From Octopus sinensis (Eukaryota), in the NCBI RefSeq assembly GCF_006345805.1, contig NC_043000.1:96410001-96474000 (forward strand): 64,000 nt of DNA, in the 5' to 3' direction. Positions 7,288 to 38,509 of the stretch are shown here, one piece after another. The notes below the pieces were generated by a model, which saw only the letters and a list, made by a program, of their open reading frames with translations, did no database searches and had not been told where the DNA came from. How positions within the stretch are numbered: the first letter of the stretch is position 1; every line of letters starts with the position of its first letter. The translations under genes were made by a program, and so were the position numbers.

Positions 7288-8301
7288 CATCATCATCACC
7301 ATCATTATCATTTCCAGTATTCTACAAGAATGATTATAATTATGAACAAGTAAAATAATAAATTATTATTTTCCTTCTATATCATACTATATATAATTTT
7401 CTCTTCCACTACCGTAATCCACTGTTTCCTTTTTAATATCTTACTAAATCTACCTCAGCCCTCCTATAGTATAATGTTTTATTAATTTTATTACTTATTG
7501 TCTTCCATATATCAATATTTTGATAGTTGATTCTCAGCATTTGTACATATGTATTGTGTTGAAGAATGAAAGAAGCTTTTTTTGTACCTCTATTAATTCA
7601 TAAATTAATTTATACATTATATTATACACATTAATACAGACAAATAAAATAATTTATTATTTGTTATACACAAAAATTAATTGTCTTCTTGTGATAAAGA
7701 TTGTGAAATGATCATCGTTATATGGATGTGAGTATATGTATATTTCTTCCAATGTTCACTATCTTTCCCCTCGTTCTGGTCTAACGACCCTCCATGTTTG
7801 TTTTCATTTGGTTACCTTGCATGTCTCCACTGTCCTGTTTTTGTTCCCAACTTTGGCCCTCCATAAAATCCAAAATTTATTTTGGAAGTTATGGGAGCAA
7901 CTGTCTTTGAAGACTCATATTGTCGTTGAATGCATAAAATGAGGAGTAGATAGACAGCTGACAACTGATGAAGGTCGTTCTTTGTGTTACTTGTCCTGCT
8001 TTTAGTTTCTTTTCTCGTAACTTGCTTGTTTGCATATTTCATGTTATTTACAGTTGGTGATGTGTTGTACCTGTATATGCATATATATATATATATATAT
8101 ATATAATTACATTATATAAAAGGCTTAGTAAAATAAATTACTTTGCCACATACTGAACTCATTAGAAATAGCAGCTAAAAAAATTTTTTTAAAACTATTT
8201 CTAATACTTAAAGAAAATCTCTCTCATATAGTGTTTGCTCAAGTCAACTCACGAAAGTATGGGGGTAAAAACATTAAAAAATCACAAATGCAAGGTTATT
8301 T

Positions 8302-8351
8302 GAGAACGTACGTTTCTAGATTAGTCAAATCGACATTTCTTTCGTCAGCTC
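8302..8351 (-). ncRNA. Type I hammerhead ribozyme motif, copy 1
   Basis: Minus strand GAG-CUGACGA-A-AGA-AAU-GUC-GAUUU-GAC-UAA-UCU-A-GAAA-C-GUAC-G-UU-CUC: CUGANGA and GAAA cores, stem I GAG/CUC, minimal palindromic stem III (ACGUACGU), GUU cleavage triplet. Activity not shown. Confidence 0.75.
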
Positions 8352-8859
8352 AGAACTCCTTGATTCGGATTTGGGAACACTGAAAGTGGGAGCATACCCT
8401 TTTGGCTTCTTCTTCTCACTTCTGAAGATCTGCTCGAACTATCAGTGCTAGCAATTCAAAATTGCAAGCGAAGAATTCTGCTCTCCCCTTTCCACCAGCG
8501 TGGGTTAAAATTGGTAAACACTATGTTTTATCGGTAAAAACCGAAGCATTAAATAGAGAGAAATAAATTATAGTTTCAACAATTGAGGGTAAAACTAATT
8601 AATTATTAATCAATTTCACCAAGTATTCAGTATGTAAAGGGACCATTTAAGGCGAATTCAAATTATTACATTATATAAAAGGGCTTAGTAAAATAAATTA
8701 CTTTGCCACATACTGAACTCATTAGAAATAGCAGCTAAAAAAATTTTTTTAAAACTATTCTAATACTTAAAGAAAATCTCTCTCTATAGTGTTTGCTCAA
8801 GTCAACTCACGAAAGTATGGGGGTAAAAACATTAAAAAATCACAATGCAAAGGTTATTT

Positions 8860-8909
8860 GAGAACGTACGCTTCTAGATTAGTCAAATCGACATTTCTTT
8901 CGTCAGCTC
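8860..8909 (-). ncRNA. Hammerhead motif, copy 2, core variant (GAAG for GAAA)
   Basis: Same as copy 1 but the plus strand reads CGCTTC instead of CGTTTC at 8869-8874. Confidence 0.55.
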
Positions 8910-9620
8910 AGAACTCCTTGATTCGGATTTGGGAACACTGAAAGTGGGAGCATACCCTTTTGGCTTCTTCTCACTTCTGAAGATCTGCTCGAACTATCAG
9001 TGCTAGCAAATTCAAAATATGCAAGCGAAGAATTTCTGCTCTCCCCTTTCCACCAGCGTGGGTTAAAATTGGTAAACACTATGTTTTATCGGTAAAAACC
9101 GAAGCATTAAATAGAGAGAAATAAATTATAATTTCAACAATTGAGGGTAAAATTAATTAATTATTAATCAATTTCACCAAGTATTCAGTATGTAAAGGGA
9201 CCATTTAAGGCGAATTCAAATTATTACATTATATAAAAGGGCTTAGTAAAATAAATTACTTTGCCACATACTGTTATTTTTACTAAGCCCTTTTATATAA
9301 TGTAATAATTTGAATTCGCCTTAAATGGTCCCTTTACATACTGAATACTTGATGAAATTGATTAATAATTAATTAATTTTACCCTCAATTGTTGAAATTA
9401 TAATTTATTTCTCTCTATTTAATGCTTCGGTTTTTACCGATAAAACATAGTGTTTACCAATTTTAACCCACGCTGGTGGAAAGGGGGAGAGCAGAAATTC
9501 TTCGCTTGCATATTTTGAATTTGCTAGCACTGATAGTTCGAGCAGATCTTCAGAAGTGAGAAGAAGCCAAACGGGTATGCTCCCACTTTCAGTGTTCCCA
9601 AATCCGAATCAAGGAGTTCT

Positions 9621-9670
9621 GAGCTGACGAAAGAAATGTCGATTTGACTAATCTAGAAACGTACGTTCTC
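9621..9670 (+). ncRNA. Type I hammerhead ribozyme motif, copy 3 (inverted arm)
   Basis: GAGCTGACGAAAGAAATGTCGATTTGACTAATCTAGAAACGTACGTTCTC read directly on the plus strand; cores intact. Confidence 0.75.
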
Positions 9671-10010
9671 AAATAACCTTTGCATTTGTGATTTTTTAAT
9701 GTTTTTACCCCCATACTTTCGTGAGTTGACTTGAGCAAACACTATATGAGAGAGATTTTCTTTAAGTATTAGAATAGTTAAAAAAAAATTTTTTTAGCTG
9801 CTATTTCTAATGAGTTCAGTATGTGGCAAAGTAATTTATTTTACTAAGCCTTTAATATGTAATAATTTGAATTCGCCTTAAATGGTCCCTCTCTACATAC
9901 TGAATACTTGGTGAAATTGATTAATAATTAATTAATTTTACCCTCAATTGTTGAAATTATATATATATATATATATAATATATATGCCTATATATTATTT
10001 ATATTATATG

Positions 10011-10940
10011 CTAGCAGTATAGCCCGGCATTGCCCGGTATGAAGTTAGGATTATTAAGCTAATCAAGCGCTTTATTTCAAACCAAACTAAGTAAGACTGA
10101 CGTCAAATTTGAGCAAAATCCGCTGAAATTGGTAAACATTTGGCTGAAAATGGGTGCCAGACAATTTGATTGGGAAATCCCATAAGGAATCAGTTTATCA
10201 ATTTTTCCACTCATTGATTGTTTTTTTTGTGTTTTTGGAGAACTTAAAGCATTCAAAGATCCCTGAGCCCTAGGTAATGCCGGCATCAAGTTTGAACAAA
10301 ATACGTCAAAATTGGTAAAAGTTATGGTTGAAAATGGGGTGTAGCCAATTTTAGGGCAAAATCCTATAAGGAATCGGTTTATTGATTTTTGATCCTGATT
10401 GAATGGAAAACCATATAAGGAATCAGTTTATTGATTTTTATTTTACCCCAAATAGGAATTAACCAAACACAACATTGTTGATTAAAAAAAATCTATATTT
10501 ATACTTTAAAGTTGGTTTTCACACCCAACCCAGTTCTGCAGAATCAGTGTCGCAATGGGAATGCATGGGTTGGGAGTTTGACCAGCAGAGGTGATCAGGT
10601 TGCACATGCTGGCCCTTTTGAACACCCCCAACCCCATCACCTAACCCCACTTGGCCCATGGGTTGGGAGCCCTTCTGGCAAGGAAAATAGATTGCCCAAA
10701 AGGGCTCCTGATCCTCTGTATCAGAAGAGGTTATGTTCGGATCACAACTAAGCCTTAACCTAAGCCTAAGCTAACCTAGTGTAAGGGGGCCCAGGAGCCT
10801 CTAAATGGCAGCAAGTAATCCTGATCTAGTCCTAACCCCTCCTAGGGGTACTATCGGTCAAGGCTACATCAAAGATATACATTGGAGAATGTTGCCTCGG
10901 AGATCTGCATTGGAGAAGGTTGCATCAAAGGTTTGCACGC

Positions 10941-10979
<39 letters not shown>

Positions 10980-11175
10980 TCTCTTTTACTCTTTTACTTG
11001 TTTCAGTCATTTGACTGCGGCCATGCTGGAGCACCGCCTTTAGTCGAGCAAATCGACCCCGGGACTTATTCTTTGTAAGCCCAGTACTTATTCTATCGGT
11101 CTCTTTTGCCGAATCGCTAAGTGACGGGGACGTAAACACACCAGCATCGGTTGTCAAGCAATGCTAGGGGGACAA

Positions 11176-11206
<31 letters not shown>

Positions 11207-11400
11207 CATATATATGACAGGCTTCTTTCAGTTACCGTCCACCAAATCCACTCACAAGGCATTGGTCGGCCTGGGGCTATAGCAGAAGACACTTGCCCAG
11301 ATGCCACACAGTGGGACTGAACCCGGAACCATGTGGTTGGTTAGCAAGCTACTTACCACACAGCCACTCCTGCATATATATATATATATATATATAATAT

Positions 11401-11444
<44 letters not shown>

Positions 11445-12410
11445 TATACATATATATTATAATACACACACACACACACACACACACACAATATAAATGT
11501 CACATTCTCTACTATATATATATATTTAATAATGAACCATGTAATTCACACTCTGGAAAATGTATTTCTGTAAAATGTTGGGAGTGGGTAAAATTTCTAA
11601 GCCTTCCACCTCATCCCACCCCATTTTTCGGACCCTAGAAAGAGTTTTGTAGCATATTAGAAAGTCACAGGAATTCATTCACTGAAAAAAAAATTCCAAT
11701 GATTTCAGGATAGGGGTCCGCCCTCGCCCTACATCCTCTTTTTTCTGAACAAACATAAGGGATTTGCAGCATATTAGGAGGTCAAGCTACTTGATTCCAG
11801 CAAAAAAGAAAAATCCGATTTTTTTTTTAGTGAAAATCGTGCGGGTGAAAAGATTGGGGGTGAAATTTCCGAGGTCTCCACCTCACCCCACCCCATTTTT
11901 CAGATCCCAAAAAAGGTTGTGTAGCATATCAGGAGGTCAAAGGAATTCATTCAATGAAAAAAAAAAATTTCCAATGATTCCGGGATAGGGGTGCCCCTTT
12001 GCCCTATGTAGCCCTTTTTCCGAACGAAAAAAAGGGATTTGCAGCATATTAGGAGGTTAGGGTACTTGATTCCACGCAAAAAATCCGAGTTTTTTTTCTT
12101 AGTGAAAATCATGCAGGTGTTAATCTAAAAATTTATCCTTTGTTTTTCTTTATTGCCTTTGCTAGACAGGGGACTTAACTCATGTTAGCAAACTTACAGA
12201 TTTCACTGATGTGGAAATTAGTAAAAGTTATGGCTGAAAATCGATTTTTACCACTATCCACGGGTGCCTGAGGAAAAATAAGTTGACAAAAACACAGCCT
12301 TGGTTGTGAACAATGTCCTCCTAAAATTGGAACAACATGTGTGCTCATTTGTGGACATGCATATACTATTTTCACGTACACACACACATCCTACCTTTTA
12401 TAGATATAGA
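10011..12410 (-). mobile_element. Non-autonomous Helitron-like element (possibly composite) with nested SINE
   Basis: Minus 5' end A|TCTATATCTATAAAAGG at 12410; minus 3' end hairpin CCGGGCAATGCCGGG then CTAG ending at 10011; imperfect internal ~270-bp duplication at ~11580-12120. Confidence 0.6.
10980..11373 (-). mobile_element. tRNA-derived SINE, family B, near full length
   Basis: Head GCAGGAGTGGCTGTGTGGTAAGTAGCTTGC...GGTTCAGTCCCACTG; tail TGACTGAAACAAGTAAAAGAGTAAAAGAG; close to copies at 42815, 44641, 50610. Confidence 0.9.
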
Positions 12411-12429
12411 TATCATATATATATATATA

Positions 12430-12513
<84 letters not shown>

Positions 12514-12537
12514 AGAGGGAGAGAGAAGAGAGAGAGA

Positions 12538-12584
<47 letters not shown>

Positions 12585-12874
12585 AAAAATATAGGTAGTT
12601 AGCTTGCTAGCTAGCTAGATAGATGGATAGATAGACAGACAGACAGACGGAGAGATAGATTGATTGATAAGCTGATAGATAGATAAACAACAGGCTTTTG
12701 AACTGTCTCCATCTACCAGATTCTACCCACAAGGCATTACTCAACTCAGATCTATGGTAGAAATGACTTGCTCAAGGCGAGGCTTAGCGGGACCAAAACT
12801 ACAACAGCTTTATTATAAGGCAAACTATCTAATCACTAAGCCAGGCAACAGCACTCAGGGTTGTTGGCAAATAT

Positions 12875-13099
12875 GTTTCTTTATTGCCCACAAGGGGCTA
12901 AACATAGAGGGGACAAACAAAGACATACAAAGGGAATAAGTCGATTACATCGACACCAGTGCGTAACTGGTACTCATTTAATTGACCCCAAAAGGATGAA
13001 AGGCAAAGTGGACCTTGGCAGAATTTGAACTCAGAATGTAGCGGCAGACGAAATACTGCTAAGCATTTCGCTCGGCGCGCTGATGTTTCTGCCAGCTTG
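12875..13099 (-). mobile_element. tRNA-derived SINE, family A (Nin-domain-like core)
   Basis: Minus strand ...GCTGGCAGAAAC...TTCTGAGTTCAAATTCTGCC...GCCTTTCATCCTTTTGGGGTCAATTAAATGAGTACCAG; other copies at ~18270-18482, ~27700-27930, ~28565-28770, ~29220-29410, ~29930-30580, ~38867-39085, ~46078-46285. Confidence 0.85.
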
Positions 13100-13359
13100 G
13101 CAAATAGATTCTTCAACCCTCCTTTCATGTTTGCTATTTAGGGGAAGACAAATAAAATGATGTTGGAATTGAACTAATAAATATGCAGGGATTATAGAAA
13201 AAAATATTAATGGAATAAAGGCATTTTGTTTTTGTCTCAAAGAAAAAACTTCTGGTAGCAATTAACATTTGAAATACTATGTCTGCAGAAAAAAGTGTAG
13301 GGTTGAGGAAGGAAAGGTGCTTATGGGGTGGGGAACAAAACTGACTATAATCACATTGA

Positions 13360-13710
13360 AGGAAACAATGATGATGGTGGTAATGGTGGTGAAGTTAGTG
13401 ATGGTGGTGATGTTAGTGATAGTGGTGATGGTACAGAAAGAAGTGGTGGTTGTAGTGGGGGTGATTATAATACTGGTGGTGGTGGTACTAGTGGGTATAC
13501 TGGTGGTGCTGTTGTTGTTGATGCTGCTGCTGCTGATGATGATAAGGGTAGTGGCAGCAGTGGCGGTGATGGTGGATGGTGGATGGTGGTGGATGGTGGC
13601 AGTAGTAGTGATGATGATGACAAAGCTGGTCAGTGGTAATCATAGTGGAGGCAGTGGTGGTGGTGATGAGATGATGATGATGATAATGATGATGATGATG
13701 ACTATAATGC
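13360..13710. repeat. Degenerate (GGT/GAT)n low-complexity tract
   Basis: Runs of ggt/gat/ggtgat triplets; a second tract at ~13990-14390. Confidence 0.9.
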
Positions 13711-13758
13711 TGAAGATTTAAATACTGAATTTAGTTGTACATCAGCCCTGGTACCTAC

Positions 13759-13862
13759 CCAACCACTGTAGACTTGAAGGATTGATTGTCTTGTTGCTGT
13801 TGAGAAGTTATAGTCTTCAGAACTGTGATGTACTTGGTGAGCAGACCATAGGATACTAGTCT
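13759..13862 (-). CDS. AGMO: Alkylglycerol monooxygenase, exon 4 (104 nt)
   Basis: ttttatttttccag|AG ACT AGT...GGT TGG|gtaggt; (E)TSILWSAHQVHHSSEDYNFSTATRQSILQVYSGW with HxxHH box and SSEDYN motif; phase 1 matches exon 3. Confidence 0.95.
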
Positions 13863-14599
13863 CTGGAAAAATAAAAGACAAACAAGGGGGTTAGGAAACA
13901 ACGAAAGAATGATTACAACAAATTAGGGTCACCATATAGTATTAAAATTGAGCTGTCAAAGCCGTGTCTGTATGGAAAAGTGGACATAAATATGATGATG
14001 ATGATGACGACGACGACAGTGGTGGTGGTGGTGGAGAGGTTGATGATAATGATCATGATAATAACAACGAAGATGATGATGCTGATGATGGTGATGTGGT
14101 GGTGGTGGTGGTTGGGGTGGTTATGGTGGTTGTGGTAGTAGTGGTGATGGTGCAACAGCTGGTGTTTGTGGTAGTGGTGGTGGTAGTGGTAGAAGTGTTT
14201 GTGATGGTGGTAGTTGTGTTTGTAGTTATGATGATGATAATGATGGTGATGATGATAATAACAACGGTGAATTTAATGAAGATGATGATGATAACAATAT
14301 ATGATGATGATGATGGTGGTGGTGGTGGTGGTGGTGATGTTGATGTGATGATGATGATGGCATCTGGTTGGTGATGATGGTGGTGATGGAGCTTGTGTGG
14401 ATCAGACAGAATTCATTGCGAAAGATTTTCTATGATTAAATGCCCTTCGTTTTCCCAATTCTCACCTATTTCCAAGCAACGTAATGCTTTCTCCAAGCTA
14501 GGTGGTTTTTTTTACAGAGGATTGGGAAACAAAGGACATTACTTCAATGATGGTGATCTTCCTTTATAACAACCGTACAAAGTCAAGACAAGGATGGTG

Positions 14600-14975
14600 A
14601 TGATGATTGTATACAATACCCACCTTCTTTCCAACAACAACTTAGACACCCTTTTGAGCTCCATATATCTAACATTCATATAAAATCAAAAAACAACGCA
14701 GCACCTATGACTTTTGGAAACATTTTTTCATGCTCAGAACTGCTGAAGCATAGAATAAACTGCCTGCATCAGTTGTCAGCTGTTGAGACATGACATCCTT
14801 CAAAACCTCCATGCTTTTTGAAATTCACCAACAGTACACATGATGTTTCCTAAATTCTTTTTCAAATGATTCATTCACTGTTCCCGTCCTGTGCATTGTT
14901 CTACATGGTGTTCATGCACTTTTCACTACTTTTTCTGATGAGTTGTAATGCATCTGAGCATTGTATACAATAAGC
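14600..14975 (+). mobile_element. CR1-like LINE 3' remnant
   Basis: Reads WKHFFMLRTAEA*NKLPASVVSC, like the CR1 ORF2 C-terminus; its tail (GCA(C/T)CTGAGCA(C/T)TGTATACAATAA) recurs inverted at ~2560-2600, ~5295-5340, ~18140-18180. Confidence 0.6.
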
Positions 14976-15897
14976 TCATCATCATCATCATTTAATATCT
15001 GCTTTCCATGCTAGCATGGGTTGGATGGCTTGACAGCAGCTGACCAGCTAGAGTGCTATTCAGGCTCCCTGTCTCTTTTGGCATGGTTTCTATGGCTGGA
15101 TGCCCTTCCTAATGCTAACCACTTTACAGAGTGTACTGGATGCTTTTATGCAACACCAGTATGGGTTCTTTTTATCTGGTACCAGCACCTATGAGCCCGC
15201 AAGATTAGGGGTGCTCAGATGGAGAAGGTTGCAGGGGATGAGCCTGTATGCAAGGACAACCATGCTGCTTTCACATAGCTTGATGTGTCTTTTCAAGCAC
15301 AGCTAACCACCAGGACTTTTGGTTTCCTGTCAACCGCTCTGTGAGTCCCAACATTTGTAGATCCTTTCTCACCACTTCATCATATGTATATATATATATA
15401 TATATATGTTCATGTTCATATCTGCATTGCTTTTGGTGACTTGAGGATGCACATGAGGAGTCACTGAGTGACATGAATGAATTGTAAACATTGGTGAATG
15501 GTAGTGATAGCAGTGTGAGTGTGTTGCTGATAATCTATTTGGTTGGATTTATTTTTCTTTCTTCTCATATGTTATCTTTGATAGGAGAGTCCATCATATT
15601 AGTATACATGCATACATCATGCACACACACACACACACACACACAACACACACACACACATACTTATATAAAGTATCTGATAGACAAATCAATAATGGTG
15701 TAGCTTCATATTTGTTAAATCTGTTAGAAATAGCAACCAAATCTCCCTCTTTAAAAGAGCAGGACACATTTGGTAATATGGGCCTGTGTTCACAGTCTGA
15801 AAAAACATTCATGAAATGATCCCTTTAAAAAAGCAGAGTGCTGAGTCAGGCATGTTGGTATCAAAAGCATTAAAAATCTGAAAGCATCATACTTTAC

Positions 15898-16049
15898 CAT
15901 GTGCAAGTCGATGGAACCAGTAGTAGGAAAAGTCAACGACTAAAAGAGTAAGTATCCAAGTATATGGTGAGTTCCATTCCAGTTTTACAATGTGGTAATT
16001 ATTGTATATCCACTGGTACATATTCAGGAATCCTGACCTCAAAAAGATC
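15898..16049 (-). CDS. AGMO: Alkylglycerol monooxygenase, exon 3 (152 nt)
   Basis: aattacag|G ATC TTT...GCA CAT G|gtaaag; IFLRSGFLNMYQWIYNNYHIVKLEWNSPYTWILTLLVVDFSYYWFHRLAH with the first HxxxH box; phase 2 matches exon 2. Confidence 0.95.
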
Positions 16050-16606
16050 CTGTAATTAATGATAATAAAAAAAAACTTGAACATTGTTATGAAACTATAA
16101 TATTAAGTAAATGAATTAAAATCTTATTGTCTTTTTCCCTATTTGAAATCAATTTGCCAATTATACTTCATTATGGTTAAAGGATTGTCATGTCATATAC
16201 ATAATTGTCCATTCTTATGATTGTTATTTTACATATGTTTTTCTATTCATTATAAGTTTGCTTCCCAGCCACATGGTTCAGAGTTTAGGTTCAATCCCAC
16301 TGTGTGGCACCTTAGGTGAATATCTTCAGCTATGGCCTTGGGCTGATTATGAGTGGATTTGGAAGACATAAGCTGAATGAAGTCCTTTGTATATATATAT
16401 ATATGTCATCATCATCATCATTTAACGTCTGTTGTCCATGCTGGCATGGGTTGGATAGTTTGACCAGGGCTGGCACACTAGAAGGCTGCACCAGTTAAAT
16501 ACATGCCCAACCATAGAGTGACTAATGGTTTTGCATCCATAATCCTTAAAGTGCTTAGCTTTATAGACAGACTTCTTTTTTGGATATATGATCCACTGAT
16601 GATATA

Positions 16607-16659
<53 letters not shown>

Positions 16660-16667
16660 TATATATA

Positions 16668-17382
16668 AAGTATTAATTTATAAAAATATGGTAAAGTAAA
16701 AGAATTCACTTTACCACACACCGAACTTTTCAGAAATAGCAGCCAAAAATTTGGCTATTTCTTCAACTGCAAATAAAAGTCTCCAGACAATGCATACTCA
16801 GAAAAATAACTCACATAGGTATAAGGGAAAAACAATGAAAGATCACATCCATATACGATACCCGAGGACAGTCTGTTTCTGGATTTGTGGGTAAAACGCC
16901 ACTTTTCCTTCATCAGCTCAGAGATTTCTTCTGATTTAGATTTGAAAATACTAAGAATCAAACATACCCGTCCGATATCTGTAACATCGGACAAACCATG
17001 CCAGACACCCAGTACTAGCGAATCCAAAAATACAAATGAGATCTATTATTCTCCCTGTCCGCCCCGTGAGTCATAGAGCATTCCATTTCTACAGAGGTAA
17101 AACTGCAGTTCAAATTCTTGAGAGAAAGCATTATATTGTTATCAAAAAGGGGGTCGAATTAATTAATTATTAATAAATTCGACCAAGCAGTATTCGGTAT
17201 GTAAAGACCATTTACGGTATATTTGAAGTATTAATTTATAAAAATATGGTAAGTAAAGAATTCACTTACCACACACCGAACTTTTCAGAAATAGCAGCCA
17301 AAAATTTGGCTATTCCTTCAACTGCAAATAAAAGTCTCCAGACAATGCATACTTTTTTTGATAACAATATAATGTTTTTTGA

Positions 17383-17386
<4 letters not shown>
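16668..17386. mobile_element. Second, diverged hammerhead-bearing ~555-bp repeat (1.2 tandem units plus short inverted tail) in a (TA)n tract
   Basis: CAGAAATAGC at 16731 and 17286 (period 555); 17354-17374 is the reverse complement of 17129-17148; shares AGAAATAGCAGC, AATTAATTATTAAT, GTATGTAAAG and GACCATTTA with the 8103-9961 element. Confidence 0.8.
16864..16919 (-). ncRNA. Type I hammerhead ribozyme motif (second family)
   Basis: Minus strand GAG-CUGAUGA-A-GGA-AAA-GUGG-CGUUUUAC-CCAC-AAA-UCC-A-GAAA-C-AGACU-G-UC-CUC; canonical cores, GUC triplet, stem I extendable to UCUGAG/CUCGGG. Confidence 0.8.
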
Positions 17387-17435
<49 letters not shown>

Positions 17436-17460
17436 CTTAAATTTATACATACAAGTGTTT

Positions 17461-17492
<32 letters not shown>

Positions 17493-17504
17493 TTATGAAT
17501 CCCC

Positions 17505-17705
17505 ACTTCCCACTACCCTTCTGGACTTATTATGTCACAAATTTGTTTGCACTACACAGTGGAGACATCTTTACTGAAAAAAAAAAAAAAGAAAAAAGAA
17601 AATTTATGAATTTTTCAACCCTCCTTAACCAGTAAAAATTTTGGCCAATTTGAAATTAAAAAAAAATAATTTGGATATTGGCAATCATCATTACAACTAT
17701 CCCCT
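17505..17705. repeat. Unclassified dispersed repeat (second copy ~19285-19495)
   Basis: TACCCTTCTGGAC...GTGGAGACATCTTT...GGATATTGGCAATCATCATTACAAC shared by both locations. Confidence 0.7.
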
Positions 17706-27961: not shown

Positions 27962-27991
<30 letters not shown>

Positions 27992-28067
27992 TGTATGTAT
28001 GTATGTATGTATGTATGTATGTATGTATGTATGTATGTATGTATGTATGTATGTATGTATGTATGTA
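27962..28067. repeat. (TATG)n microsatellite
   Basis: Perfect tetranucleotide run; others at 31169-31293, 31968-32046, 32354-32456, 34589-34707, 37679-37796, ~54360-54478, ~62950-63035. Confidence 0.95.
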
Positions 28068-29929
28068 TCGGCTGGTATGTAACCAATGAATTAGAGTACT
28101 TGGAAGAAAGTAATTTTCGCCAAATTGTTTTGCCAAAGGTTCGAGAAGCTTTGCCAAAAGTTATAGAATTTTGGATATTGAACGATCTTAGGTGCCGCAC
28201 AGAACTCTGTCACTCAATTCCATGGAAGTATTCTCACTTTTTCTACTTGTTTTGTCTATATTCACTATGAACAATTATCAAACAAATAACTGAAGTATTT
28301 GCACTTTACGCACTGAAAACTTTTAAAGTTATCACTTGCACAATAGCGTATGTTTTTTCAGTTCAATTAGTTCATTGCTCATATTTAAGTGCAAGTGTTC
28401 GAATTTTCGAAATAATAACAACATAGAAACGTACATTATTATTGGTTTCAAATATTGGCACAAGGCCAGCTGATTTAGGGGAAGGGCTAAGTCGATTACA
28501 TTGACCCCAGTGCTCACTGATACTTATTCTATCGATCCCAAAAGGCTGATGAAACGTACATTATTAGGCAGCAAGCTAGTGTAATCGTTAGAGCATCGGA
28601 CAATGTGCTTGGTGGTATTTCTTCGGGCTTTCTACGTTTTGAGTTCAAATTCTGCCGAGATTGATTTTTCTTTTCATCCTTTCAGGGTCGATAAAATAAA
28701 GTATCAATCATATACTTGAGTTGATGTAATCGACTGTCCCCTTATTTGAGCCAAAAATTGAAACCATTATTAGCGTGGTCTTTCTCACTTTAGTACACAA
28801 CCTACCAACCTATCTTCCTTCTATTGGGCATGTATTGCTAATGATGATATGACGACCACCTCTATAGAGGAAACATGTAATTTGGTAGACGGAAACATTG
28901 GGTAAGCTCGTCAGAAGAACCGTTACTGTTCATGGGATGGGGGTGGACTTAAACAATTACTTAGTTTAACATCAATACCTGGTCCTTGGGGTCTTTTGGC
29001 AGATTCAACCTTATCTGAAACATTTGTACCATGTCTCTGGTCTGAGAATGATTTCTTCCCGTTCTCTCGTCATCCTACCTCTCTCAGGGGTCCCTGAAAA
29101 GGGTCATAATGCTGCCCTGCCTCTACTGATTTAGAAATAGAAAAAAGAAAGTTCTTAAAATGGCATAAACTTAGAAGACTCTATTAGATACCTTCAAAAA
29201 CAGAAAATAAAATATTTGTTTCAAATTTTGGCAGAAGACCAGCAATTTCAGGGGAGGAGATAAGTCGATTAAATCGAACCCAGTGCTCAACTGGTACTTA
29301 TTTTATTGACTCAGAAAATACGAAGTTCATACTCGACCTCAGCGGATTTTGACCCCAGGACGTAAACATTTTGCCCGGCGTGCTAACGATCCTGCCAGCT
29401 CGTCACTTTAATGTCAAGAATTGGGTAGAAATAAATTACAGTGAATTTATAAGGACAGCACTAGAAAACAGGAAGAAAATGAAGAATGGTGTGGTTGGTT
29501 AATATCAAGAATTGAACTAACTTGGAATACAATGAATGCATAGGGGCAACACAAGAAATACCGAGATAGCGATCTAAGACAACCAGTTGATACCATTTAA
29601 CAACTTATACTTAACCACTACCCTTGTTATTGTTGTAGTTTTTGCTTAACCTCTGGCCAATCCTTATCAAAAGCATCCAGTTGTCACCATCCCACGGCAT
29701 AGAGTATCTAGAACTGCATTATCAACGATCCATTATTATAATTGCCTTTAGCTGCAATTTAAAGAAGATCGAACAGCAATGTTAATTTCTTATTAATTCT
29801 TTTTTTGCTACTGATAGTATATGCAGGCAAAGCTTAAAGGTTATTTTCTGCTTTTGTCTGTTATTTGTTGCTTCCCATAATTCAATAATTTAATATTTTT
29901 CGTTTTAAATCAAATTATATCTCTATTTT

Positions 29930-30580
29930 AAGGTGGCCAGCTGGCAGAATCATAAGCACGCCGGGCAAAATGCTTAGCGGAATTTCGTCCGTCTTTATGT
30001 TTTGAGTTCAAATTCCGCCGATGTCGACTCTGCCTTCTATCCTTCGGGGGTCGATAAAATAAGCACTAGTTGAGCACTGGAGTTGATGTAATCGACTTAA
30101 CCACTTCCTCGAACTTGTGCCAAAATTCGAAACCAGTGCTATAGACAGCGAGCTGGCAGAATCGTTAGCACACCGAGCAAAGTGCTTAACGGCATTAGTT
30201 CGTATTTACGTTCTGAGTTCAAATTCTACCGTGGTCGACTTTGCTTTTTATTCTTTCGGAGGTCGATAAAATAAGTACCAGTTGAGCACTGTAGTCGATG
30301 TAATCGACTTCCTCTCTTTCCCCAAATTACTGGTCTTGTACCAAAATTTGAAATCAACATATTTCTGCTCTAATAAGTCAGCGAGTTGATAGAATAGTTA
30401 CAGCGCCGGGGAAAACGAAGCCAAAAAAAAAAAAAAGGCATGTCTTCTGGTTTTTGCAGTTGTGAGTCCAAGTCCCACAGGTATTGGCCTCTCCTTTCTG
30501 AATCGATAAAATAAGTACTTGTGAAGTACTGGAGTCAATATAATCCTCTTAAAACTTACTGGACTTGTTCCAAAATTTAA
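29930..30580 (+). mobile_element. Three head-to-tail family A SINEs
   Basis: Heads at ~29932, ~30148, ~30378, each followed by GAGT(T/C)CAA...GATAAAATAAG...CCAAAATT; third copy most decayed. Confidence 0.8.
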
Positions 30581-31293
30581 AAGAAAACACGTTTTAATAT
30601 TTTTGTGTATTTTACTCTAATATTCCAAAAGCATTGAGATTCCCAAAGTAACAAAACTGCTTTTTTTCATAATAAACAACAATAACAACAACAAAAGATA
30701 ATACAGAGAATAATAGAGGGTAACTCTTTAACACTCTTTTAAATATGTGTCATCCAGATAACAGAACCTATCTACTCTTAAGTTATCAGAGCGGTCCATG
30801 GTCTTCAGTTCAGGGCTGTTCATTTCATGCCCTTTACTGATTTATTTTTGGTTTGCCACTAATCTCATTACGTCTTTTGTTTATCCATTCTTTGGCTCTG
30901 ATTGTTTAATAATTTGCTATTTAAAAAAAAAATGGCTTAGTTAAAGGAAGAAGGGCAACGGTCATGATCCCCTTCAAGGGCCTCTGTTGATAACAGGAGA
31001 AAAGAAATAAGCGATTCTTCTGTGGGAGAGCTGCCACGAATATTTGCAACGGAGTGAATTTCACTATAAGTACAGAAGGAAGAAGTGGTGGTGTGAAGCA
31101 AGGCAACGCATAAATCTATAACTCAAGAATGTCTTTGGCGTTTCTCATCTTTCCATGTATATACGCTCATGCGAGCGCATGTATGTATGTATGTATGTAT
31201 GTATGTATGTATGTATGTATGTATGTATGTATGTATGTATGTATGTATGTATGTATGTATGTACGTACGCATGCATGCATGTATGTATGTATG

Positions 31294-31967
31294 GTCAGGA
31301 TGAAGGATTCAAGGATGCCTAAACAACTCTTTTATGGAGAGTTAGCTAAAGGAGAACGACCTACACATAAACCAAAAAAGAGGTATAAGGACTTGCTGAA
31401 GGCTTCCTTAAGAGATGCTTGCATCTCTCTAGACACATGGGAAGGCATAGCTATTGATCGTAGCAGGTGGAGAAGGATTGTGCACAAGGGGACAGCCACT
31501 TTTGAGAAATCTCGAGTTGCTCATGAGAAAGTAAGGAGGGATGTCAGGAAGGGCATCGATGTTACACTTCCTGATGGGAAGGGTCTTCCTATGATGCTGA
31601 CATGCAGTGTCTGTGCAAGACCCTGCCTCAGTAAAGCTGGACTCAAAAGTCATCTTCGTAGTCATAAAGCGAAACAGATTAGTGACAACCTGGCCACTGG
31701 TGGTGATGTTACACACCATACTAATCATATCTGTCAGGCACGTGGAAGAGAGTGTAATTCGGCAGGAGGACTTAAACGACATGCAAAGGTACATGAAGCC
31801 CATTTACAACTACAGCCGGCTATTACCGGTAAAGGTTTTAGTTGCTAATTCTGCACAAGACATGGTAGATCTTTGGCTGGGCTAAAAAGTCACATTCGAT
31901 CACAGTACCAGTAACAGTTAATCTTCGTGCAATGGCCATACTCGATAACGAGGGGGCAGCCATAATA
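31294..31967 (+). mobile_element. 5'-truncated RTE-clade LINE 3' end with C2H2 zinc fingers
   Basis: VRMKDSRMPKQLFYGELAKGERPTHKPKKRYKD...TWEGIAIDRSRWR, then CSVCARPCLSKAGLKSHLRSH and two further decayed fingers; flanked by (TATG)n on both sides. Confidence 0.85.
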
Positions 31968-32046
31968 ATGTATGTATGTATGTATGTATGTATGTATGTA
32001 TGTATGTATGTATGTATGTATGTATGTATGTATGTATGTATGTATG

Positions 32047-32351
32047 TGTGCAGATTTGTATGCATTGTTTAATGTATTCTGATGCATATAGTTGCATATC
32101 TAGACGTATTCACATATATTTAATTGATAAACTTCGGGAAAGTTTCACAGACTTTTACAGTTCCATTGATGGATTGGATCTGTAGTCTTCGAATTAGCTT
32201 TCTACTTTCTGATTTTCAGAAGCCTAATTTTTCGAGACTGGTATTTAGGCAGTGTGTTACATATCCATGGAACCCAATAATTACAGGTATAAACCTGAAC
32301 TTGTAATCTGGATAGAGTGACTGAAGATTTCTCAATAGTTCAGCGTAGGTA
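32047..32351 (-). mobile_element. R4/Dong-type (RLE) retrotransposon, short 3' end (copy 1)
   Basis: Minus strand TYAELLRNLQSLYPDYKFRFIPVIIG; strongly similar to 34708-35011; bounded by TATG arrays. Confidence 0.8.
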
Positions 32352-32383
32352 TTTGTATGTATGTATGTATGTATGTATGTATG

Positions 32384-32415
<32 letters not shown>

Positions 32416-32456
32416 GTATGTATGTATGTATGTATGTATGTATGTATGTATGTATG

Positions 32457-34588
32457 ATCTTTTCTGATTTTAATTATTCAAATTCTTCCTTTGAGGAAGG
32501 AGCTGGTTTCTGATAAAGATACAAAGCTCCATCGCTGGAATGTAGATGAAAACAATGTCACATTTTGAATTTGAGAAAAGTCTTTCAAATTTTTACCGTT
32601 TCATTTACAGGTTATATTTGTAGAGTGCAAGTTAGTCGGTTGATTTCATTTTCTGAAAACGCTAGCTTATCCAGATTGTCCTTTTGACATTTATTCACGA
32701 AACCAAGTGCACATTATTATTGGTATAAATGTGAATTTACAATTTGGATATAGAAGCTGGAAGTTTCGAAAACGTCGTCCATAGTTATCCTCTTTCTCTT
32801 CCATTTTCAGAGATATTCACATCAGCTGGGCAGTTGACCGCTGTGACGGTACATACTTTTTCTTGTCTGTCCCAAACAACACTATCCAGTCTGTTATGTT
32901 TACATTTGACATGTTTTGATGGGATGTTCCACCAGTATTCCTTGTGTTGATATTTGTGTATGTATTCAATAAGAGGGTTATTCTCTATATTTATTCCAGG
33001 ACAGTCTTTTTTTCTGAATTGCATTGTACGTGGTCTGATCAATAAGTATCCGGACTGTTGTTATAGTAACGAAGCTAAAGCACAGAGAATAAAGCTGCTT
33101 GGCACAGATTGACCTTGAACTCTGCTGTGCATGCGCACTAAGTTCTAGCGTTCTAGCTTACTTCTACTGTTTACAGCAGTGCTTAGAAGGAAGGTGTGTA
33201 GCGTGTGATCGTCGCATTGACCATGACAGAGAAAGCTGAGCAGAGAATCTGCATCAAATGTTGCCAAAAGCTTGGCGATACCTGCTCAGAGGCCTACGCA
33301 AAGTATTTAAAAGGTTTTCATCGTTTTCGACACAATTAAGGTAATTTTGTTCCACTGAAACCCAAGTGTCTTTTTGGTCAGCTGAAAGCAGTTTTGGCAC
33401 AAACTTAGTAGACATGCGTCCCTTACCCAAATCTTCAGCTATGATGGACTGAACTGAACCGTAACTAATCTGCACATCCTCTGATAACTCACGGATGGCG
33501 ATTCGACGATTTCCCCTTACAGCTGCACGCACATCTGTGATGTTTTTCTCAGTTCTGCTGATTGCGGGACCCCAGAACGTTCGTCAATATCGACATTTTT
33601 CGGCCATCTTGGAAAACGTCTGAACCACTCGTACATTCCTCATACACTCCTCTCCATACAATTTCTGTCACGGTCATGGTCAATGCGACGATCACACGCT
33701 ACACACCTTCCTTCCGATCACAGCTGTAAACAGCGGAAGTGAGCTAGGACGTTAAAACTTAGTGCGCATGCACAGCAGAATTTGAGGTCAATCTGTGCCA
33801 AGCAGATTCACTCTGCGTTCTTTAGCTTCGTTACTATGGCAACAGCCCGGATACTTATTGATCAGACCTCGTATACTGTTTTTGCGATAACATTGTGTCC
33901 GTAGGGAGGTAGTACCTTGACATTTTGGGGCAGCTGCTTATCACATGTATGATGCCATCTTCAGAAATATAACATAATCTACGTTTTCGGTTGCATGTTG
34001 GAGCTCCAAGGGACTCACTGTTTCATTTGTTTATTTGGTATTTCTCTTGTTCTTGGATTGCAAACGAGTCCAAAAGAGGCTGCACTTCACGTCGATATTA
34101 CTGCTTTCTTCAAGTCTTCGGGAAACATACGTATGCATAGTGTTTTTGGTATACTGTGCATTTTACATGCAGGTCTTCGAGATACGGTGGTCCAGTTGTT
34201 TTGGAGTTGTATGGGAGGTCATGAGGAAGAGAGTGCTTCCTGCGGAGCTCGCTGCCATAGGTTATTATTCGCATCACTTATCAGCACCAAGTTAATGTTA
34301 TTGTGTTTGCTGTTGTTGTTTAGTAAGTGCTGTCTGAAAGAGACTATACGACATTCGAAGGCGGTTTGCACCACTCTCAAGCCTCTGTCTGTGGAAATTA
34401 TCAGTTGAAGTGTATATCTTGCGGGTTTTAACATTTATGTAATGGATTTCCTCTACGGACCAGAGAAGTACCCCAATGTGGGCACTGGTACTGCAAATGC
34501 ATTGTGATATTGTTTTGCTGTAAAAGGAGAGTTCCGATTACCATATTTTTCTAAATCTTTCGTAATATTCTCGGGTTTCTCTAACTTC
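32457..34588 (-). mobile_element. R4/Dong-type retrotransposon, truncated (copy 2), split by a mariner insertion
   Basis: HNAFAVPV, GLRVVQTAFECRIVSFRQHLL, HVISSCPKMS zinc-knuckle remnant, EYWWNIP...CKHNRLDSVVWDRQEKVCTVTAVNCPADVNI restriction-like endonuclease region. Confidence 0.8.
33029..33871. mobile_element. Mariner-derived element built from two 5' ends in inverted orientation
   Basis: TA|CGTGGTCTGATCAATAAGTATCCGG ... CCGGATACTTATTGATCAGACCTCG|TA; arms match ~200 bp up to the ATG; plus MTEKAEQRICIKCCQKLG, minus RRIAIRELSEDVQISYGSVQSII...KFVPKLL. Confidence 0.85.
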
Positions 34589-34707
34589 ATGTATGTATGT
34601 ATGTATGTATGTATGTATGTATGTATGTATGTATGTATGTATGTATGTATGTATGTATGTATGTATGTATGTATGTATGTATGTATGTATGTATGTATGT
34701 ATGTATG

Positions 34708-37678
34708 CATATGTGCAGATTTGTATGTTTTGTTTTATGCATTCTCATGCATATAGTTGCATATCTAGACATGCTCATATTTTTCTAAATGATAAACTTC
34801 TGGAAAGTTTTACAGACTTTTACAGTTCCAGTGATGGATCTAAAGTCTTCAAATTAGCTTTCTCCTTTCTGATTTTGAGAAGCCTAATTTCTCAAGACTG
34901 ATATTTAGGCTGTGTGTTACATATCCCAGTGACCCAATAATTACAGGTATAAATCTGAACTTGTAATCTGGATAGAGTGACTGAAGATTTCTCAATAGTT
35001 CAGCGTAGGTATTCTCTTTTTCACTGACCTTCAGCTTTATGTTAGCATCTCCTGGTCAGCTAATTTCTACAACTTACACAGTTTCTCTTCACTATCCCAA
35101 ATCATTATATCAGGTATGTTGTGCTTACATTTTATTGAGGTTTTCACTGGGACATTCCACTAGTACTCCTTTTTATTATGAGTGTCTATGGCTTCTACCA
35201 TACTGTGGGTTCTTACTTTTTAGTCCTCGGGGTTATCCTTCCGACGGATTTCATAACACAGTATCCTAGCTACATCATGTCTTATCGGCAGATAATGCCG
35301 TGATGACATTTTCAGACAACTGCTTATGATGTGGGTGATATCTACGGTGTTAACTCCACAAAGTCTGCATCAGTTGTCACATTTTACTGCTATTCCTGCA
35401 TCTCTAACCCTTTTGTGCATCAGGTATTTCGTTGATATTTCCTGTTCCTGGATTGCAAAACGCGTACCCTTCAAAGTGGGAGGTTGTAATCCAGCTATTG
35501 GTCCAAGATAGACTGCTTTGATGATCGATGTTACTATCATCTCGGAGCTTTCTACTAACATATCCATGTTTAGTCTTCTGCTCATATAGGCTCATCCTTT
35601 CATCTGATGATATGTTGCGGTAGAGTCGTGAAACTTCTTTGTGCATGCATTTAAGCTTATCAGACAAGGAATGTTGCTCAAGGAGCCGCCTTCCAAGTGT
35701 TAGGATGGTTAAGGAAGGAATGCACTTCGACACTTGGTGGTTAAACGATGTTGCCGCAGGGATATGATACGACATTCAAAGGCATTTTGGATCGATGTTA
35801 AGCCTCTGCCGCCTTGTTTTCGTTTTAGGTGGAGGCGCTTTACATTATTGTTTATGTGGAAATTATGTGTGCTTGTTAGTATTTTTCGTGTGTTCGCAGC
35901 AATGGCTCGGATGTCATCAAGCGTCCAGTCAAGCAGCCCAAAAGTTGGTACGAGCACTGGCACTGCAGACTCATTGTGGACCACTGTTTTATTGAATGCA
36001 GAGAGTTCTGAGGTCCAAATGTTATTTATTCGGTTGTAATATTCTTTAATGACACGTGTTTTGTTGCAGGCGCCATTGTAAGATATGTTTTCATCCATCC
36101 CTAGATACCTGTAACACTCCTCGTCAGATGTAGGGGAAACAGTTAAGTCATTGATGGAAATGCTGCTAGTCTGGTTTACAGTTTTCTTCCTTTGCACAGT
36201 AACATTTACCCTGACCAAACTCCCTTAACAACATTTATCCTGACCAAACTCCAACCCTGCATCCTTTGAGAATGTTGTAACTAGGTCAAGGCTCTTTTTC
36301 ATCTCATGCCTATTCTTTGCATAAAGTTTCAAATCATCCACAAAGAAACAGTGTGTAATATTAGCATTTCTGTTGTGAACCAGTGAGCTATCCTTCAGAC
36401 TTCCTTAACATGAATAACAAGGAATTTACAGAAAGTATAAACATCATCACAGGGGGGCTGTCCCCTTGGAATATGTCTTTGCGATACTGTATTCTATCAG
36501 TGATAATACAATCATTCTCTGTGTTTAATTTCAAGATGGTGGCCCATGATGAAGTCACTCAGGTCAGCTGTGGCTTTGACTCTGCTCACTGGAACTTTAG
36601 CAAGTTGAAGGGCTTCTAGCATCCATGAATGGGGAATAGAGTCAAAGGCTTTCTTGTAGTCTAGCCACACTGAAACTAGGTTCCTCCTATGCTCTCGCAC
36701 CTCTGACATCACAGTTTTGTTGATTAACAATTGCTCGGCACATCCCCAGACTCCCTTCTTTCTTGTTCTGCTGTGATGATGTTATTGGTTTCACAATGGT
36801 CCTGGAGGAAGAGGTTTAAGCATGCTGTATATATCTTATACATTAAGTTTTGGTATACAATTGGCCAGTAGTTTTTTGCTATGTGGGTGGTTCTGCATCT
36901 TGGGATCAATTTTGTCACTGCCAGAGCTAACCAGTGTGTTAAGCTACTGTACCCACTGAGAGCTTGCTAGTGCAAATTGATAAGATATGGTCGGTAGAAG
37001 GTTAGCTTCTTGTACCAATATCCAACAATCAAGTATCTTTCCGGCGCTTTTCCATCCTGGAGTTTCTGGATCACAGTTGCAAGAGTATCATCATCAATAC
37101 TTTATGTCTTGGGTGTAACGCAAGAGCAATAACTTCTTCGGATTTCTTCCAGCCACAGAGCATCTTGGTTAAACTCTTTCTCTTCACTCTTTTCCTCTAG
37201 ATGGAGTCTATGTCTTCTCGTGAAGGAGCTTCTGTGATGTTCACTGCTCCTCTCATGTCTGTATATTGCTACCTGGTTCCGTTTAAATTTTTTGTTTATT
37301 GTTTTTCGCTCGGTTATTCTCTTCTGATGCCAGAGTTTCTCACTGACAACTTTTAGCTCCTGCTTGAGGGTAATTAGTTTGCAAGTGAGTGTCCTCTTTT
37401 TGCTATCTTCAAACATCATTTCTATCTCCTTCTTTACTTTCTGTTGGTGGGACGTATAGTGATTTGCTTGTTTGCACATGACTGATGGTCTTCTGTAAAC
37501 CAGTTTTCTTTATCTCTGTCTTCAAAATCCGTGATGGTGCTTTCGGTTTCGGTTTTGTTCACTATTTGAATGTCATTCATTTACCGCTGTGCACTGATAG
37601 CCAGAGCATATAGACATTGCGTTAATCTGCCAGAATGTGGGTTCGCCACACTGCTGTAAATACTCATCACCAATACAC
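34708..37678 (-). mobile_element. R4/Dong-type retrotransposon, ~3 kb decayed (copy 3)
   Basis: RT motifs WLDYKKAFDSIPHSW, FQGDS, HCFFVDDLKLYA, YRYLG; GGRGLTSIQNAFECRIISL; FAIQEQEISTKY; RLE C-terminus; many stops and frameshifts. Confidence 0.9.
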
Positions 37679-38216
37679 ATGTATGTATGTATGTATGTAT
37701 GTATGTATGTATGTATGTATGTATGTATGTATGTATGTATGTATGTATGTATGTATGTATGTATGTATGTATGTATGTATGTATTTATGTATGTATACAC
37801 ACACGAATGAGTGGATAAACGGAAGAAAGTAACATATATTGTTAAGAAAAGTTTGACTCGGCTCAGCATGACAGGAAGTTTCGTGGGCGCGCAGGATACG
37901 TCCATCTATCCTAAGCGTCCTCAAAATTTCAAATCATATGGACCTGAGTCAAACTGTCATACATACATAAATGCATACATACACATATATATATATACAC
38001 ACACACAAAACACACCCACACACACACACACACACGTTCTCTGAAGAGTTTCTAATCGGAGATACCTCTCATGTTTATCCTGCATGTACAAATTTTATAA
38101 CTCCTATTAGCAAATGAAACATGTGTAATGGTGATTAAATAATACGAAAAAAAATTCTATTCTCCTGTTTTGATATATGCCACGTATGTATAAAGCTACA
38201 TCCATATGTATGTATG

Positions 38217-38248
<32 letters not shown>

Positions 38249-38296
38249 TGTATGTATGTATTATGTATGTATGTATATATATATATATTATATATA

Positions 38297-38341
<45 letters not shown>

Positions 38342-38350
38342 ATGTGTGTA

Positions 38351-38509
38351 TATGTGCCCATATTTGTACATATTTTCACTTACATACATATATGTGCCCA
38401 TATTGTACATATTTTCACTTACATACATATATGTGCCCATATTTGTACATATTTTCACTTACATACATATATGTGCCCATATTTGTACATATTTTCACTT
38501 ACATACACA
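38351..38509. repeat. Minisatellite, 4 x ~40 bp
   Basis: Unit TATGTGCCCATATTTGTACATATTTTCACTTACATACATA at 38351, 38391, 38430, 38470. Confidence 0.95.

Follow-up and report, generated by a model that had tools for sequence, protein, structure and literature searches.

Penelope-like elements (PLEs) are common in invertebrate genomes. In this work we analyzed a 719-bp insertion in a 64,000-nt stretch of the Octopus sinensis genome (RefSeq assembly GCF_006345805.1, contig NC_043000.1; C4:96410001-96474000 within the 2.7-Gb genome), which is referred to below as the window. The insertion is one copy of a dispersed non-coding repeat family with a 555-558-bp unit, and a diverged sister element lies in the same window; the two subfamilies are called sub2 (the 719-bp insertion) and sub1 (its sister). 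The paper of Craig et al. (2021; PMC8557442) describes strong 5' truncation and partial tandems in endonuclease-positive PLEs, an inverted 5'-truncated copy beside a direct copy, and a 30-40-bp 'tail' that is often found at one end only. The same text states a (TA)n preference for Naiads, reports multicopy head-to-tail insertions of non-autonomous PLE partners, and calls the PLE integration mechanism undefined; its preprint version names Octopus spp. among the Naiad hosts. For metazoan non-long-terminal-repeat (non-LTR) retrozymes, the paper of Cervera and de la Pena (2020; PMC7229834) describes short tandem units, type I hammerheads and circular RNA, and proposes target-primed copying into tandem cDNA by PLEs. 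The words 'microsatellite' and 'inverted' are absent from that paper, so a (TA)n target, convergent arms and two start sites are not described there for retrozymes. Li, Clavereau and Pollet (2026; preprint 10.64898/2026.07.22.740005) argue that the origin of such retrozymes lies in the pseudo-LTRs of PLEs. The pseudo-LTRs of PLEs carry 'min-HHR' (minimal hammerhead ribozyme) or variant hammerheads with a helix I of 4-6 bp and a helix II that is longer than usual and has an unpaired nucleotide at its 5' base; their short palindromic helix III suggests action as a dimer, a single copy being expected to have low activity (Cervera and de la Pena, 2014; PMC4209133).

Both octopus subfamilies share with PLE insertions the 5' truncation, the partial tandems, the adjacent inverted copy, the one-sided tail and the (TA)n bias. 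They differ in that the unit is without a reverse transcriptase (RT) or GIY-YIG open reading frame (ORF), the tail measures ~95 nt compared with 30-40 bp in print, and no 3' sequence is common to the units and the PLE examined. With non-LTR retrozymes the units share a short, non-coding, head-to-tail organization, a low GC content, a genome that also houses PLEs, and a proposed copying of RNA into tandem cDNA that is primed at the DNA target. As in retrozymes, the core of a candidate hammerhead follows type-I order, lies on the predicted transcript strand and has a helix III that is short and palindromic; the difference is that the putative motif is unseen by the Rfam Hammerhead_1 model and has A.A at the base of helix II. 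The short helix I, the long helix II with an unpaired base and the short palindromic helix III also recall the PLE min-HHR, whereas the octopus motif has a 1x1 A.A involving both strands of the helix II base and a helix II of 25-30 nt with an internal loop. We consider it likely that the feature is a non-autonomous retrozyme-type PLE partner and that a minus-strand RNA was the template for its target-primed reverse transcription. The family is a known kind of hitch-hiking mobile element and not a new system, and its additions to what is known are a sister pair with a non-canonical motif, a rule for the pairing of two start sites, and copies that carry a passenger. The integration mechanism postulated in the initial annotation of the window is not an unknown one: its footprint is the one published for PLEs (PMC8557442), and similar non-coding partners have been described as non-LTR retrozymes (PMC7229834).

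Anatomy of the insertions and their end points

The sub2 insertion (16668-17386) contains 1.24 repeat units plus a short inverted piece, and it lies between two (TA)n arrays, one at 16602..16667 (Tandem Repeats Finder [TRF] period 2, 33.5 copies, confirmed by reading the sequence) and one at 17387..17433 (TRF, 23.5 copies, 100%). The window + strand sense of the long arms, taken as the cDNA sense, defines the 'A' orientation, in which unit positions are given with the prefix A. Two sites in this numbering, S1 (A458-471) and S2 (A1-18), are ~95 nt apart on either side of a conserved hairpin module. By self-match and segment map, the sub2 long arm (16668..17353, + strand) starts at S2 and covers +1-559 and then +1-131, that is from A1, its first non-TA base, to A131. 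The AAGT unit starts at 16668 and 17226 are 558 bp apart, and three 1-nt deletions in the second copy bring the best period down to 555 (17218-17353 versus 16660-16798, 95.7% over 139 nt). The short inverted arm (17354..17386, - strand; inverted match and sequence reading) consists of two pieces from S1. Positions 17355-17378 are the reverse complement of 17125-17148 (95.8% over 24 nt), i.e., A458-481 reversed, and after them a second, 12-nt piece (TTTTTTGATAAC at 17375-17386) touches the (TA)n; both pieces are abortive copies begun at S1.

The sub1 insertion has the same plan. Segment mapping places its long arm of 2.09 units (period 558, S2 start) at 8106..9273 on the + strand and its inverted arm of 1.2 units (675 nt) at 9274..9948 on the - strand, with the outer end of the inverted arm at S1 and A468 as its first non-TA base; the flanks are (TA)n at 8081..8105 (TRF) and 9949..10009 (TRF array 9958-10009). 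The units of both subfamilies have a GC content of 33-35% and are non-coding, the longest stop-free frame in a unit trimer being 83-95 aa. A GACCATTTA block at 17206-17214 precedes the sub2 unit start at 17226, and in the sub1 element 15 nt separate this block from the ATTACATT after it. The best-kept blocks between the subfamilies are a ~95-nt stretch with the stem-loop and GACCATTTA, a second hairpin, and the hammerhead-like core. The first of these, the 'tail' module between S1 and S2 (17132..17226, - strand), is the best conserved stretch of all, with a sliding identity of 73-87% over alignment columns 16-90.

All that the initial annotation had observed in the window agrees with these data: the like unit size (555 in sub2, 558 in sub1), the position of both elements inside (TA)n (TRF arrays on all four sides), unit starts 11-15 nt past GACCATTTA, and an inverted terminal piece whose outer end in both elements is at TTATA/TATAT just upstream of the stem-loop with AATTAATTATTAAT, at unit position ~458-470. 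The strong divergence between the conserved blocks was also borne out (342 of 531 ungapped columns identical, 64%), as was the idea of a diversified family, here two subfamilies with a common unit size, target and homologous end points. As for more subfamilies, only two short diverged fragments were seen among the loci examined, too few for a covariation count.

Next, we examined copies elsewhere in the genome. Unit searches produced at least 1391 (sub2) and at least 2166 (sub1) first-look candidates on many contigs; scoring 39 and 40 of these, respectively, gave 146 and 143 matches, and the genomic copies are 92-99% identical to the window copies. A first sample comprised 46 independent insertions (24 sub2, 22 sub1) after exclusion of overlapping loci and one duplicated locus. 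A second sample, which was picked by a 90-nt segment and not by length, added 19 further sub2 insertions with 0.23 to 1.95 units each. We also observed one sub1 insertion with identical unique flanks on two chromosome-scale contigs in opposite orientation (L074/L075 at C10:60.47 Mb and L076/L077 at C5:62.95 Mb), a pair that is a segmental duplication or an assembly duplicate.

The targeting of (TA)n that had been suggested from the two window elements holds genome-wide: (TA)n with n of at least 5 lies within 30 nt in 78 of 90 scorable flanks, compared with a background of 1.8-2.0% per side in the window (P ~7e-119). Tabulation of the end points across the genomic copies showed that they are non-random. 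The first non-TA base is in S1 or S2 for 65 of the 70 defined ends, while these sites take up 32 of the 558 unit positions (P ~2e-74); the remaining five ends are at A30, 72, 108, 183, and 523. At the junctions the (TA)n merges into the TATA of the unit, and the start positions (reading TATATTG.., AAGTATT.., or TAATTTAT..) differ from arm to arm by a few nt and keep the register of the TA microhomology. Single arms have a hot-spot site at their A start in 20 of 21 cases, and in the first sample their far ends are scattered from A39 to A559.

Two-armed insertions made up 25 of 46 in the first sample and 7 of 19 in the second. All 32 have the convergent '+ then -' layout and none is divergent. 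When both ends were on the contig (24 two-armed insertions), S1 was paired with S2 in 19, whereas ~10 mixed pairs are expected from the marginal frequencies (P = 2e-4); same-site pairs were found once for S2+S2 and never for S1+S1. It follows from this S1+S2 rule that the 95-nt module is present at one insertion end only. These counts change the picture of a defined start, a copy of more than one unit and a later inversion that had been drawn from the window. Each arm does have one defined end, but there are two start sites and not one. More than one unit was copied in many arms, the arm lengths across both samples ranging from 0.2 to 5.3 units, but this is not general, as 10 of the 19 insertions in the second sample fall below one unit. 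An inversion after copying from one start does not fit the 32 convergent insertions, in which both outer ends are starts.

Unit identities point to a common source for the two arms. The median identity in sub2 is 0.993 within the same arm, 0.995 between opposite arms and 0.979 between insertions, and the corresponding values in sub1 are 0.972, 0.970, and 0.945; in one array three units are identical at 559/559 positions. Since identity within insertions exceeds that between insertions, both arms of an insertion appear to have been copied from the same template. Seven loci have the inner junction A152/A229 in common, which means that some of the two-armed structures were inherited or are segmental duplicates.

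Probable template strand and hammerhead-like motif

From the arm polarity we infer that the A strand is the copy and that its complement, the minus strand, was the template. The module stem, the lower minimum free energy (MFE) and the hammerhead-like motif all fall on the template strand predicted in this way. The stem-loop of the module, found as a self-inverted match at 17152-17184 with the loop at 17161-17175, has the stem GGTCGAATT/AATTCGACC in sub2 and GGTGAAATT/A(G/A)TTTTACC in sub1. In a two-sequence alignment, on which this comparison is based, the sub1 pairing is kept via G-C>A-U and C-G>G.U changes; the G.U pairs would be A.C on the opposite strand, so that pairing is found on the minus strand only. 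The circular MFE is -162.8 kcal/mol on the inferred template strand versus -111.7 kcal/mol on the other in sub2, and -142.9 versus -127.0 kcal/mol in sub1. Folding z-scores are -6.5 (template strand) versus -3.2 in sub2 and -5.9 versus -6.3 in sub1, where the template strand is not favoured.

The hammerhead-like motif is at homologous places in the two subfamilies. In sub2 a descriptor match in type-I order covers 16861..16922 on the - strand, with a predicted cut between 16867 and 16866. The sub1 motif (CUGACGA ... GAAAC GUAC GUU, with a palindromic helix III) is at 8301..8352 on the - strand (descriptor match 8348), and the inverted arm carries its homologue at 9620-9671 on the + strand (descriptor match 9624); in the second tandem unit the motif reads GAAG in place of GAAA. 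Helix I is predicted to have 6 bp in sub2 (UCUGAG/CUCGGG) and 4 bp in sub1. The core reads CUGAUGA in sub2 or CUGACGA in sub1, followed later by GAAA, and H17 is present in both subfamilies. Above its A.A base, helix II contains GGA/UCC or AGA/UCU, an A-rich internal loop, and GUGG/CCAC or GUC/GAC. The short helix III is ACA/UGU (3 bp) in sub2 or the palindrome ACGUACGU in sub1, and the predicted cleavage-site triplet GUC (sub2) or GUU (sub1) precedes the helix I partner. The descriptor found three matches in the 64-kb window, all within these elements, compared with 0.08 per shuffled window; among 2000 shuffled units it matched 3 (sub2) and 4 (sub1).

Rfam hammerhead models gave no match on 7900-17600 at E <= 1, and the Rfam microRNA (miRNA) family matches at 9192-9337 reflect the fold-back junction only. 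A permuted hammerhead (Eckert et al., 2023) was considered and rejected: the blocks are in the standard C-G-S order and the module is without CUGANGA. We call the motif hammerhead-like and probably derived from PLE-type ribozymes, and the chances that it would act as a working ribozyme are about even. A canonical-looking hammerhead core (CUGAUGAG...CGAAAC) was seen separately on the reverse strand of locus L057 at ~1086 (C8:18.82 Mb). The short element that contains it has TA arrays on both sides and is situated upstream of a second PLE family, whose 775-aa ORF ends ...LNKQ.

Penelope-like elements and LINE-carrying copies in the genome

A Pfam GIY-YIG search of the genome gave 149 matches from 150 scored of 5029 first-look candidates. 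The GIY-YIG domain was C-terminal in all matches examined (10 loci read), so there is no Naiad among them. One autonomous PLE family (L051 1621-5560 and 12 other copies among loci L031-L058) has a 781-aa ORF that scores 29.1 bits for RVT_1, just under the cut-off of 29.6, and 27.8 bits for GIY-YIG, over the cut-off; it is preceded by an overlapping 479-aa ORF without a Pfam match. Its 3' untranslated region contains repeated TGACGTC-containing blocks, and its 3' end ...ACAAATATAT (also read ...TTTTTTACAAATATAT) touches (TA)n in 11 of 13 copies, while a 38-nt hairpin tail followed by TA is found in 2 of 13. This succession of a TA-rich site, a hairpin tail and a TA-rich site is the layout of S2, module and S1. 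Neither Rfam nor the descriptor detected a hammerhead in the autonomous PLE, and the only Rfam matches at E <= 0.1 in four PLE loci were microsatellite-like ones to miRNAs.

A third small non-coding family, used as a control, lies beside a PLE copy at L051 6264-7360, in (TA)n and with two convergent arms. Its type I hammerhead, which Rfam Hammerhead_1 scores at 30 bits (E 5e-6), below the gathering score of 34, is on the strand complementary to the outer-to-inner reading, which is the same relation as that of the sub1/sub2 motif. Its outer ends map ~135 nt apart in the unit, again the one-sided-tail layout. Another locus, L089, contains no ORF and no relative of the unit. A likeness between ACTTCA..AAATATACC at S2 and a PLE is not claimed, the local alignment being below the shuffled mean.

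Some sub2 copies carry a long interspersed element (LINE) of ~5.1-5.5 kb between A336 and A319, with an 18-nt duplication. The sense of the LINE is that of the inferred unit RNA; its 1026-aa ORF contains Exo_endo_phos, RVT_1, and zf-RVT, and the upstream 405-aa ORF is without a Pfam match. Examples are L120 1465-6541 (C14:26.36 Mb), L121 1743-7124 (C12:75.19 Mb), and L122 1604-7080 (C11:40.78 Mb). The unit/LINE junction was found in full length at 17 places whose outer starts and flanks differ. At C9:102.29 Mb two arms begin in the unit, enter the LINE from both sides and join inside it; in L160 an arm extends into the LINE for 1.67 kb, where it meets an inverted arm made of unit sequence only; and at one locus two plain units stand ahead of the LINE-bearing unit. 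The LINE-carrying composite was copied repeatedly, to many (TA)n sites, by the same process as the plain units. The composite copies imply a template of up to ~6 kb, which may be a heterogeneous multimer, and a 555-nt monomer circle is not required; the S2-proximal part of the unit together with the module seems to be enough in cis. Site-specific LINE insertion may explain the tandems in which two LINE copies are parted by 18 unit nt, but it cannot account for arms that meet or stop inside the LINE.

Head-to-tail tandems of the same LINE were observed as well (L140-L143; C9:70499064-70514641, C4:149553304-149558795, and C6:112817673-112830984). In four places the tandem copies are parted only by the 18 unit nt A319-336, and other tandem arrays with a period of ~5.4 kb are without those 18 nt. 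The tandems reflect either re-entry of the LINE into the regenerated target site or tandem copying of the LINE by a Penelope-type process.

Other repeats were noted in the window. The end of a very abundant repeat that resembles a short interspersed element (SINE; CATCATCATCATTTAACGTC...GGTTGGA..., window 16400-16494) adjoins the sub2 element, and its summed contig depth is thousands to millions in the runs compared. A 272-bp tandem repeat at 11605-12119 (TRF, 1.9 copies, 81% matches) has an array of (AT)n/(AC)n on one side and of (TA)n/(AG)n on the other. A 10-kb stretch contains six long arrays of (ATGT)n/(TATG)n (27962, 31179, 31968, 32354, 34589, and 37679-38351), which may mark a larger repeated block at 27962-38351.

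Proposed copying mechanism and competing explanations

Target-primed copying of a single-stranded template would give arms of one polarity, with a defined start joined to the 3' side of the target and a far end that varies, as seen here. A double-stranded template should be entered on either strand at the palindromic TATA, yet the insertions show one polarity. The scatter of the starts with TA microhomology fits the annealing of a ...TATA-3' primer end and not a nick at a fixed base. As many copies have arms of more than one unit, the template was multimeric or circular; a circular form is a real possibility that falls somewhat short of probable. Both arms begin at priming sites, and hence the 'inversion' is a second priming from the other DNA end.

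In the mechanism that we propose, a PLE RT/GIY-YIG endonuclease would cut (TA)n, and the freed ...TATA-3' ends would anneal to UAUA of the RNA at S1 or S2 and prime cDNA synthesis. On an RNA that is multimeric or circular, the enzyme would run past one unit length, as many copies suggest. Priming from the remaining DNA end would use the other site of the same RNA and so leave the one-sided 'tail', and the two cDNAs would then be joined at a random point. The processing of multimeric transcripts would fall to the hammerhead-like motif of the template strand, which may act only as a dimer. The strict form of this scheme, in which one and the same RNA accepts both DNA ends of a (TA)n cut as primers, at the UAUA sites on either side of the 95-nt module, is offered tentatively and is less likely than not.

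Several observations weigh against copying of a minus-strand RNA by a PLE. A single-stranded DNA template of fixed polarity would yield the same anatomy, and the first sample was picked by full-unit matches, which biases its unit numbers upward. Unit-length Logan contigs were found (X1, X2, X5, X15), one of them circularly permuted (597 nt, X5), and the unique flanks are uncovered in three small Logan runs; as the 24 runs were available as contigs and the run kind was guessed, this pattern does not separate tandem DNA, circles and transcripts. The units scored 21 in local alignment to the 3' ~1 kb of the PLE examined, compared with a shuffled mean of 24. A two-unit nhmmer profile searched against 28 PLE loci detected only the neighbouring family copy (L046), in addition to weak matches to another small hammerhead family, and with blastn the units had a single match, of 23 nt, in 8 PLE loci. 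On the side of the motif, Rfam found no hammerhead on the 131-nt segments 16830-16960 or 8270-8400 at E <= 10, and it does report that of the control family (30 bits), only in a narrow search. The helix II base is A.A instead of the usual G10.1-C11.1, and the predicted cut at A199/200 (16867/16866) is not an insertion end point. The LINE-carrying copies argue against efficient self-cutting of a single motif, since the motif lies between the LINE and the priming site and efficient cutting would part the two; this fits dimer-dependent, weak or no activity.

Mobilization by an AP (apurinic/apyrimidinic)-endonuclease LINE, with the inverted arms made by L1-style twin priming at a TA-rich cut, is an improbable alternative. 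In L1 twin priming, two cDNAs are made from the two DNA ends of one target, which gives an inverted 5' part with a variable join. This 5' inverted segment has the same topology as the inverted arm of the units, with a variable join as well; AP-endonuclease-type LINEs are present and active here (the 1026-aa ORF described above), and the PLE loci compared show no sequence link to the units. The units differ in having no poly(A), two internal UAUA priming sites, tandem multi-unit arms, and the (TA)n target. None of the 70 defined ends has the poly(A) or simple-repeat 3' tail of SINE-like elements mobilized by LINEs, the LINE that is in contact with the family inserted at a non-TA site with an 18-nt duplication, and the genome abounds in a PLE that shares the (TA)n target. 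Copying at the DNA level is about as improbable. Here the broken (TA)n ends would invade a circular or tandem DNA unit at TA microhomology and copy inward, by microhomology-mediated repair or by rolling-circle synthesis on extrachromosomal circles. Such repair, templated and running inward from the two ends, would agree with the start microhomology, the convergent arms, the copies longer than a unit and the variable inner junction, and Logan contigs of guessed run kind do not separate DNA from transcripts. It does not agree with the one polarity in 32/32 two-armed and 20/21 single-armed insertions despite a palindromic TATA, nor with three features of the predicted template strand: its G.U-only stem changes, its lower folding energy and its hammerhead-like motif. 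The same layout is found in the RT-encoding PLE and the Rfam-hammerhead family of this genome.

Rolling-circle transposons were considered as well. Helitrons and other HUH elements insert at TA dinucleotides, have a hairpin near one end, and form tandem arrays by read-through. The units resemble them in TA insertion, hairpin and tandem arrays. A Helitron-like or other HUH transposon or replicon with the AT-rich stem-loop as its origin, which would be the circular template of the initial annotation read literally as DNA, would account for a start that is defined and an end that varies, for copies longer than a unit, and for the conservation of a stem-loop whose loop is AT-rich. The units differ in their end motifs, in where the starts lie with respect to the hairpin, in the variability of their 3' ends and in the convergence of their arms. 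The starts are ~25 nt before and ~45-60 nt after the stem-loop, with none in the loop at 17161-17175, and they scatter over A1-18 and A458-471 in TA register. Neither a 5'-TC nor a 3'-CTRR at a fixed 3' end is present, the 3' ends being the variable ones. Helitrons are not known to produce arms that converge from two defined starts, and the unit is without an ORF. We therefore give this explanation almost no weight, and return to the PLE-dependent, target-primed copying of a minus-strand RNA.

The short, young and abundant family provides many clean insertion footprints and concrete constraints on models of PLE integration, and the footprints suggest a minimal cis element for a retrotransposition assay. 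If the dual-priming scheme is true, it would explain together the one-sided 'tail' and the inverted arm, two unexplained Penelope hallmarks, and the 95-nt module would be a portable cis signal, able to carry a 5-kb LINE passenger. For genome annotation, thousands of fold-back or tandem (TA)n blocks could be classed as PLE-dependent and not as unknown satellites or assembly artefacts.

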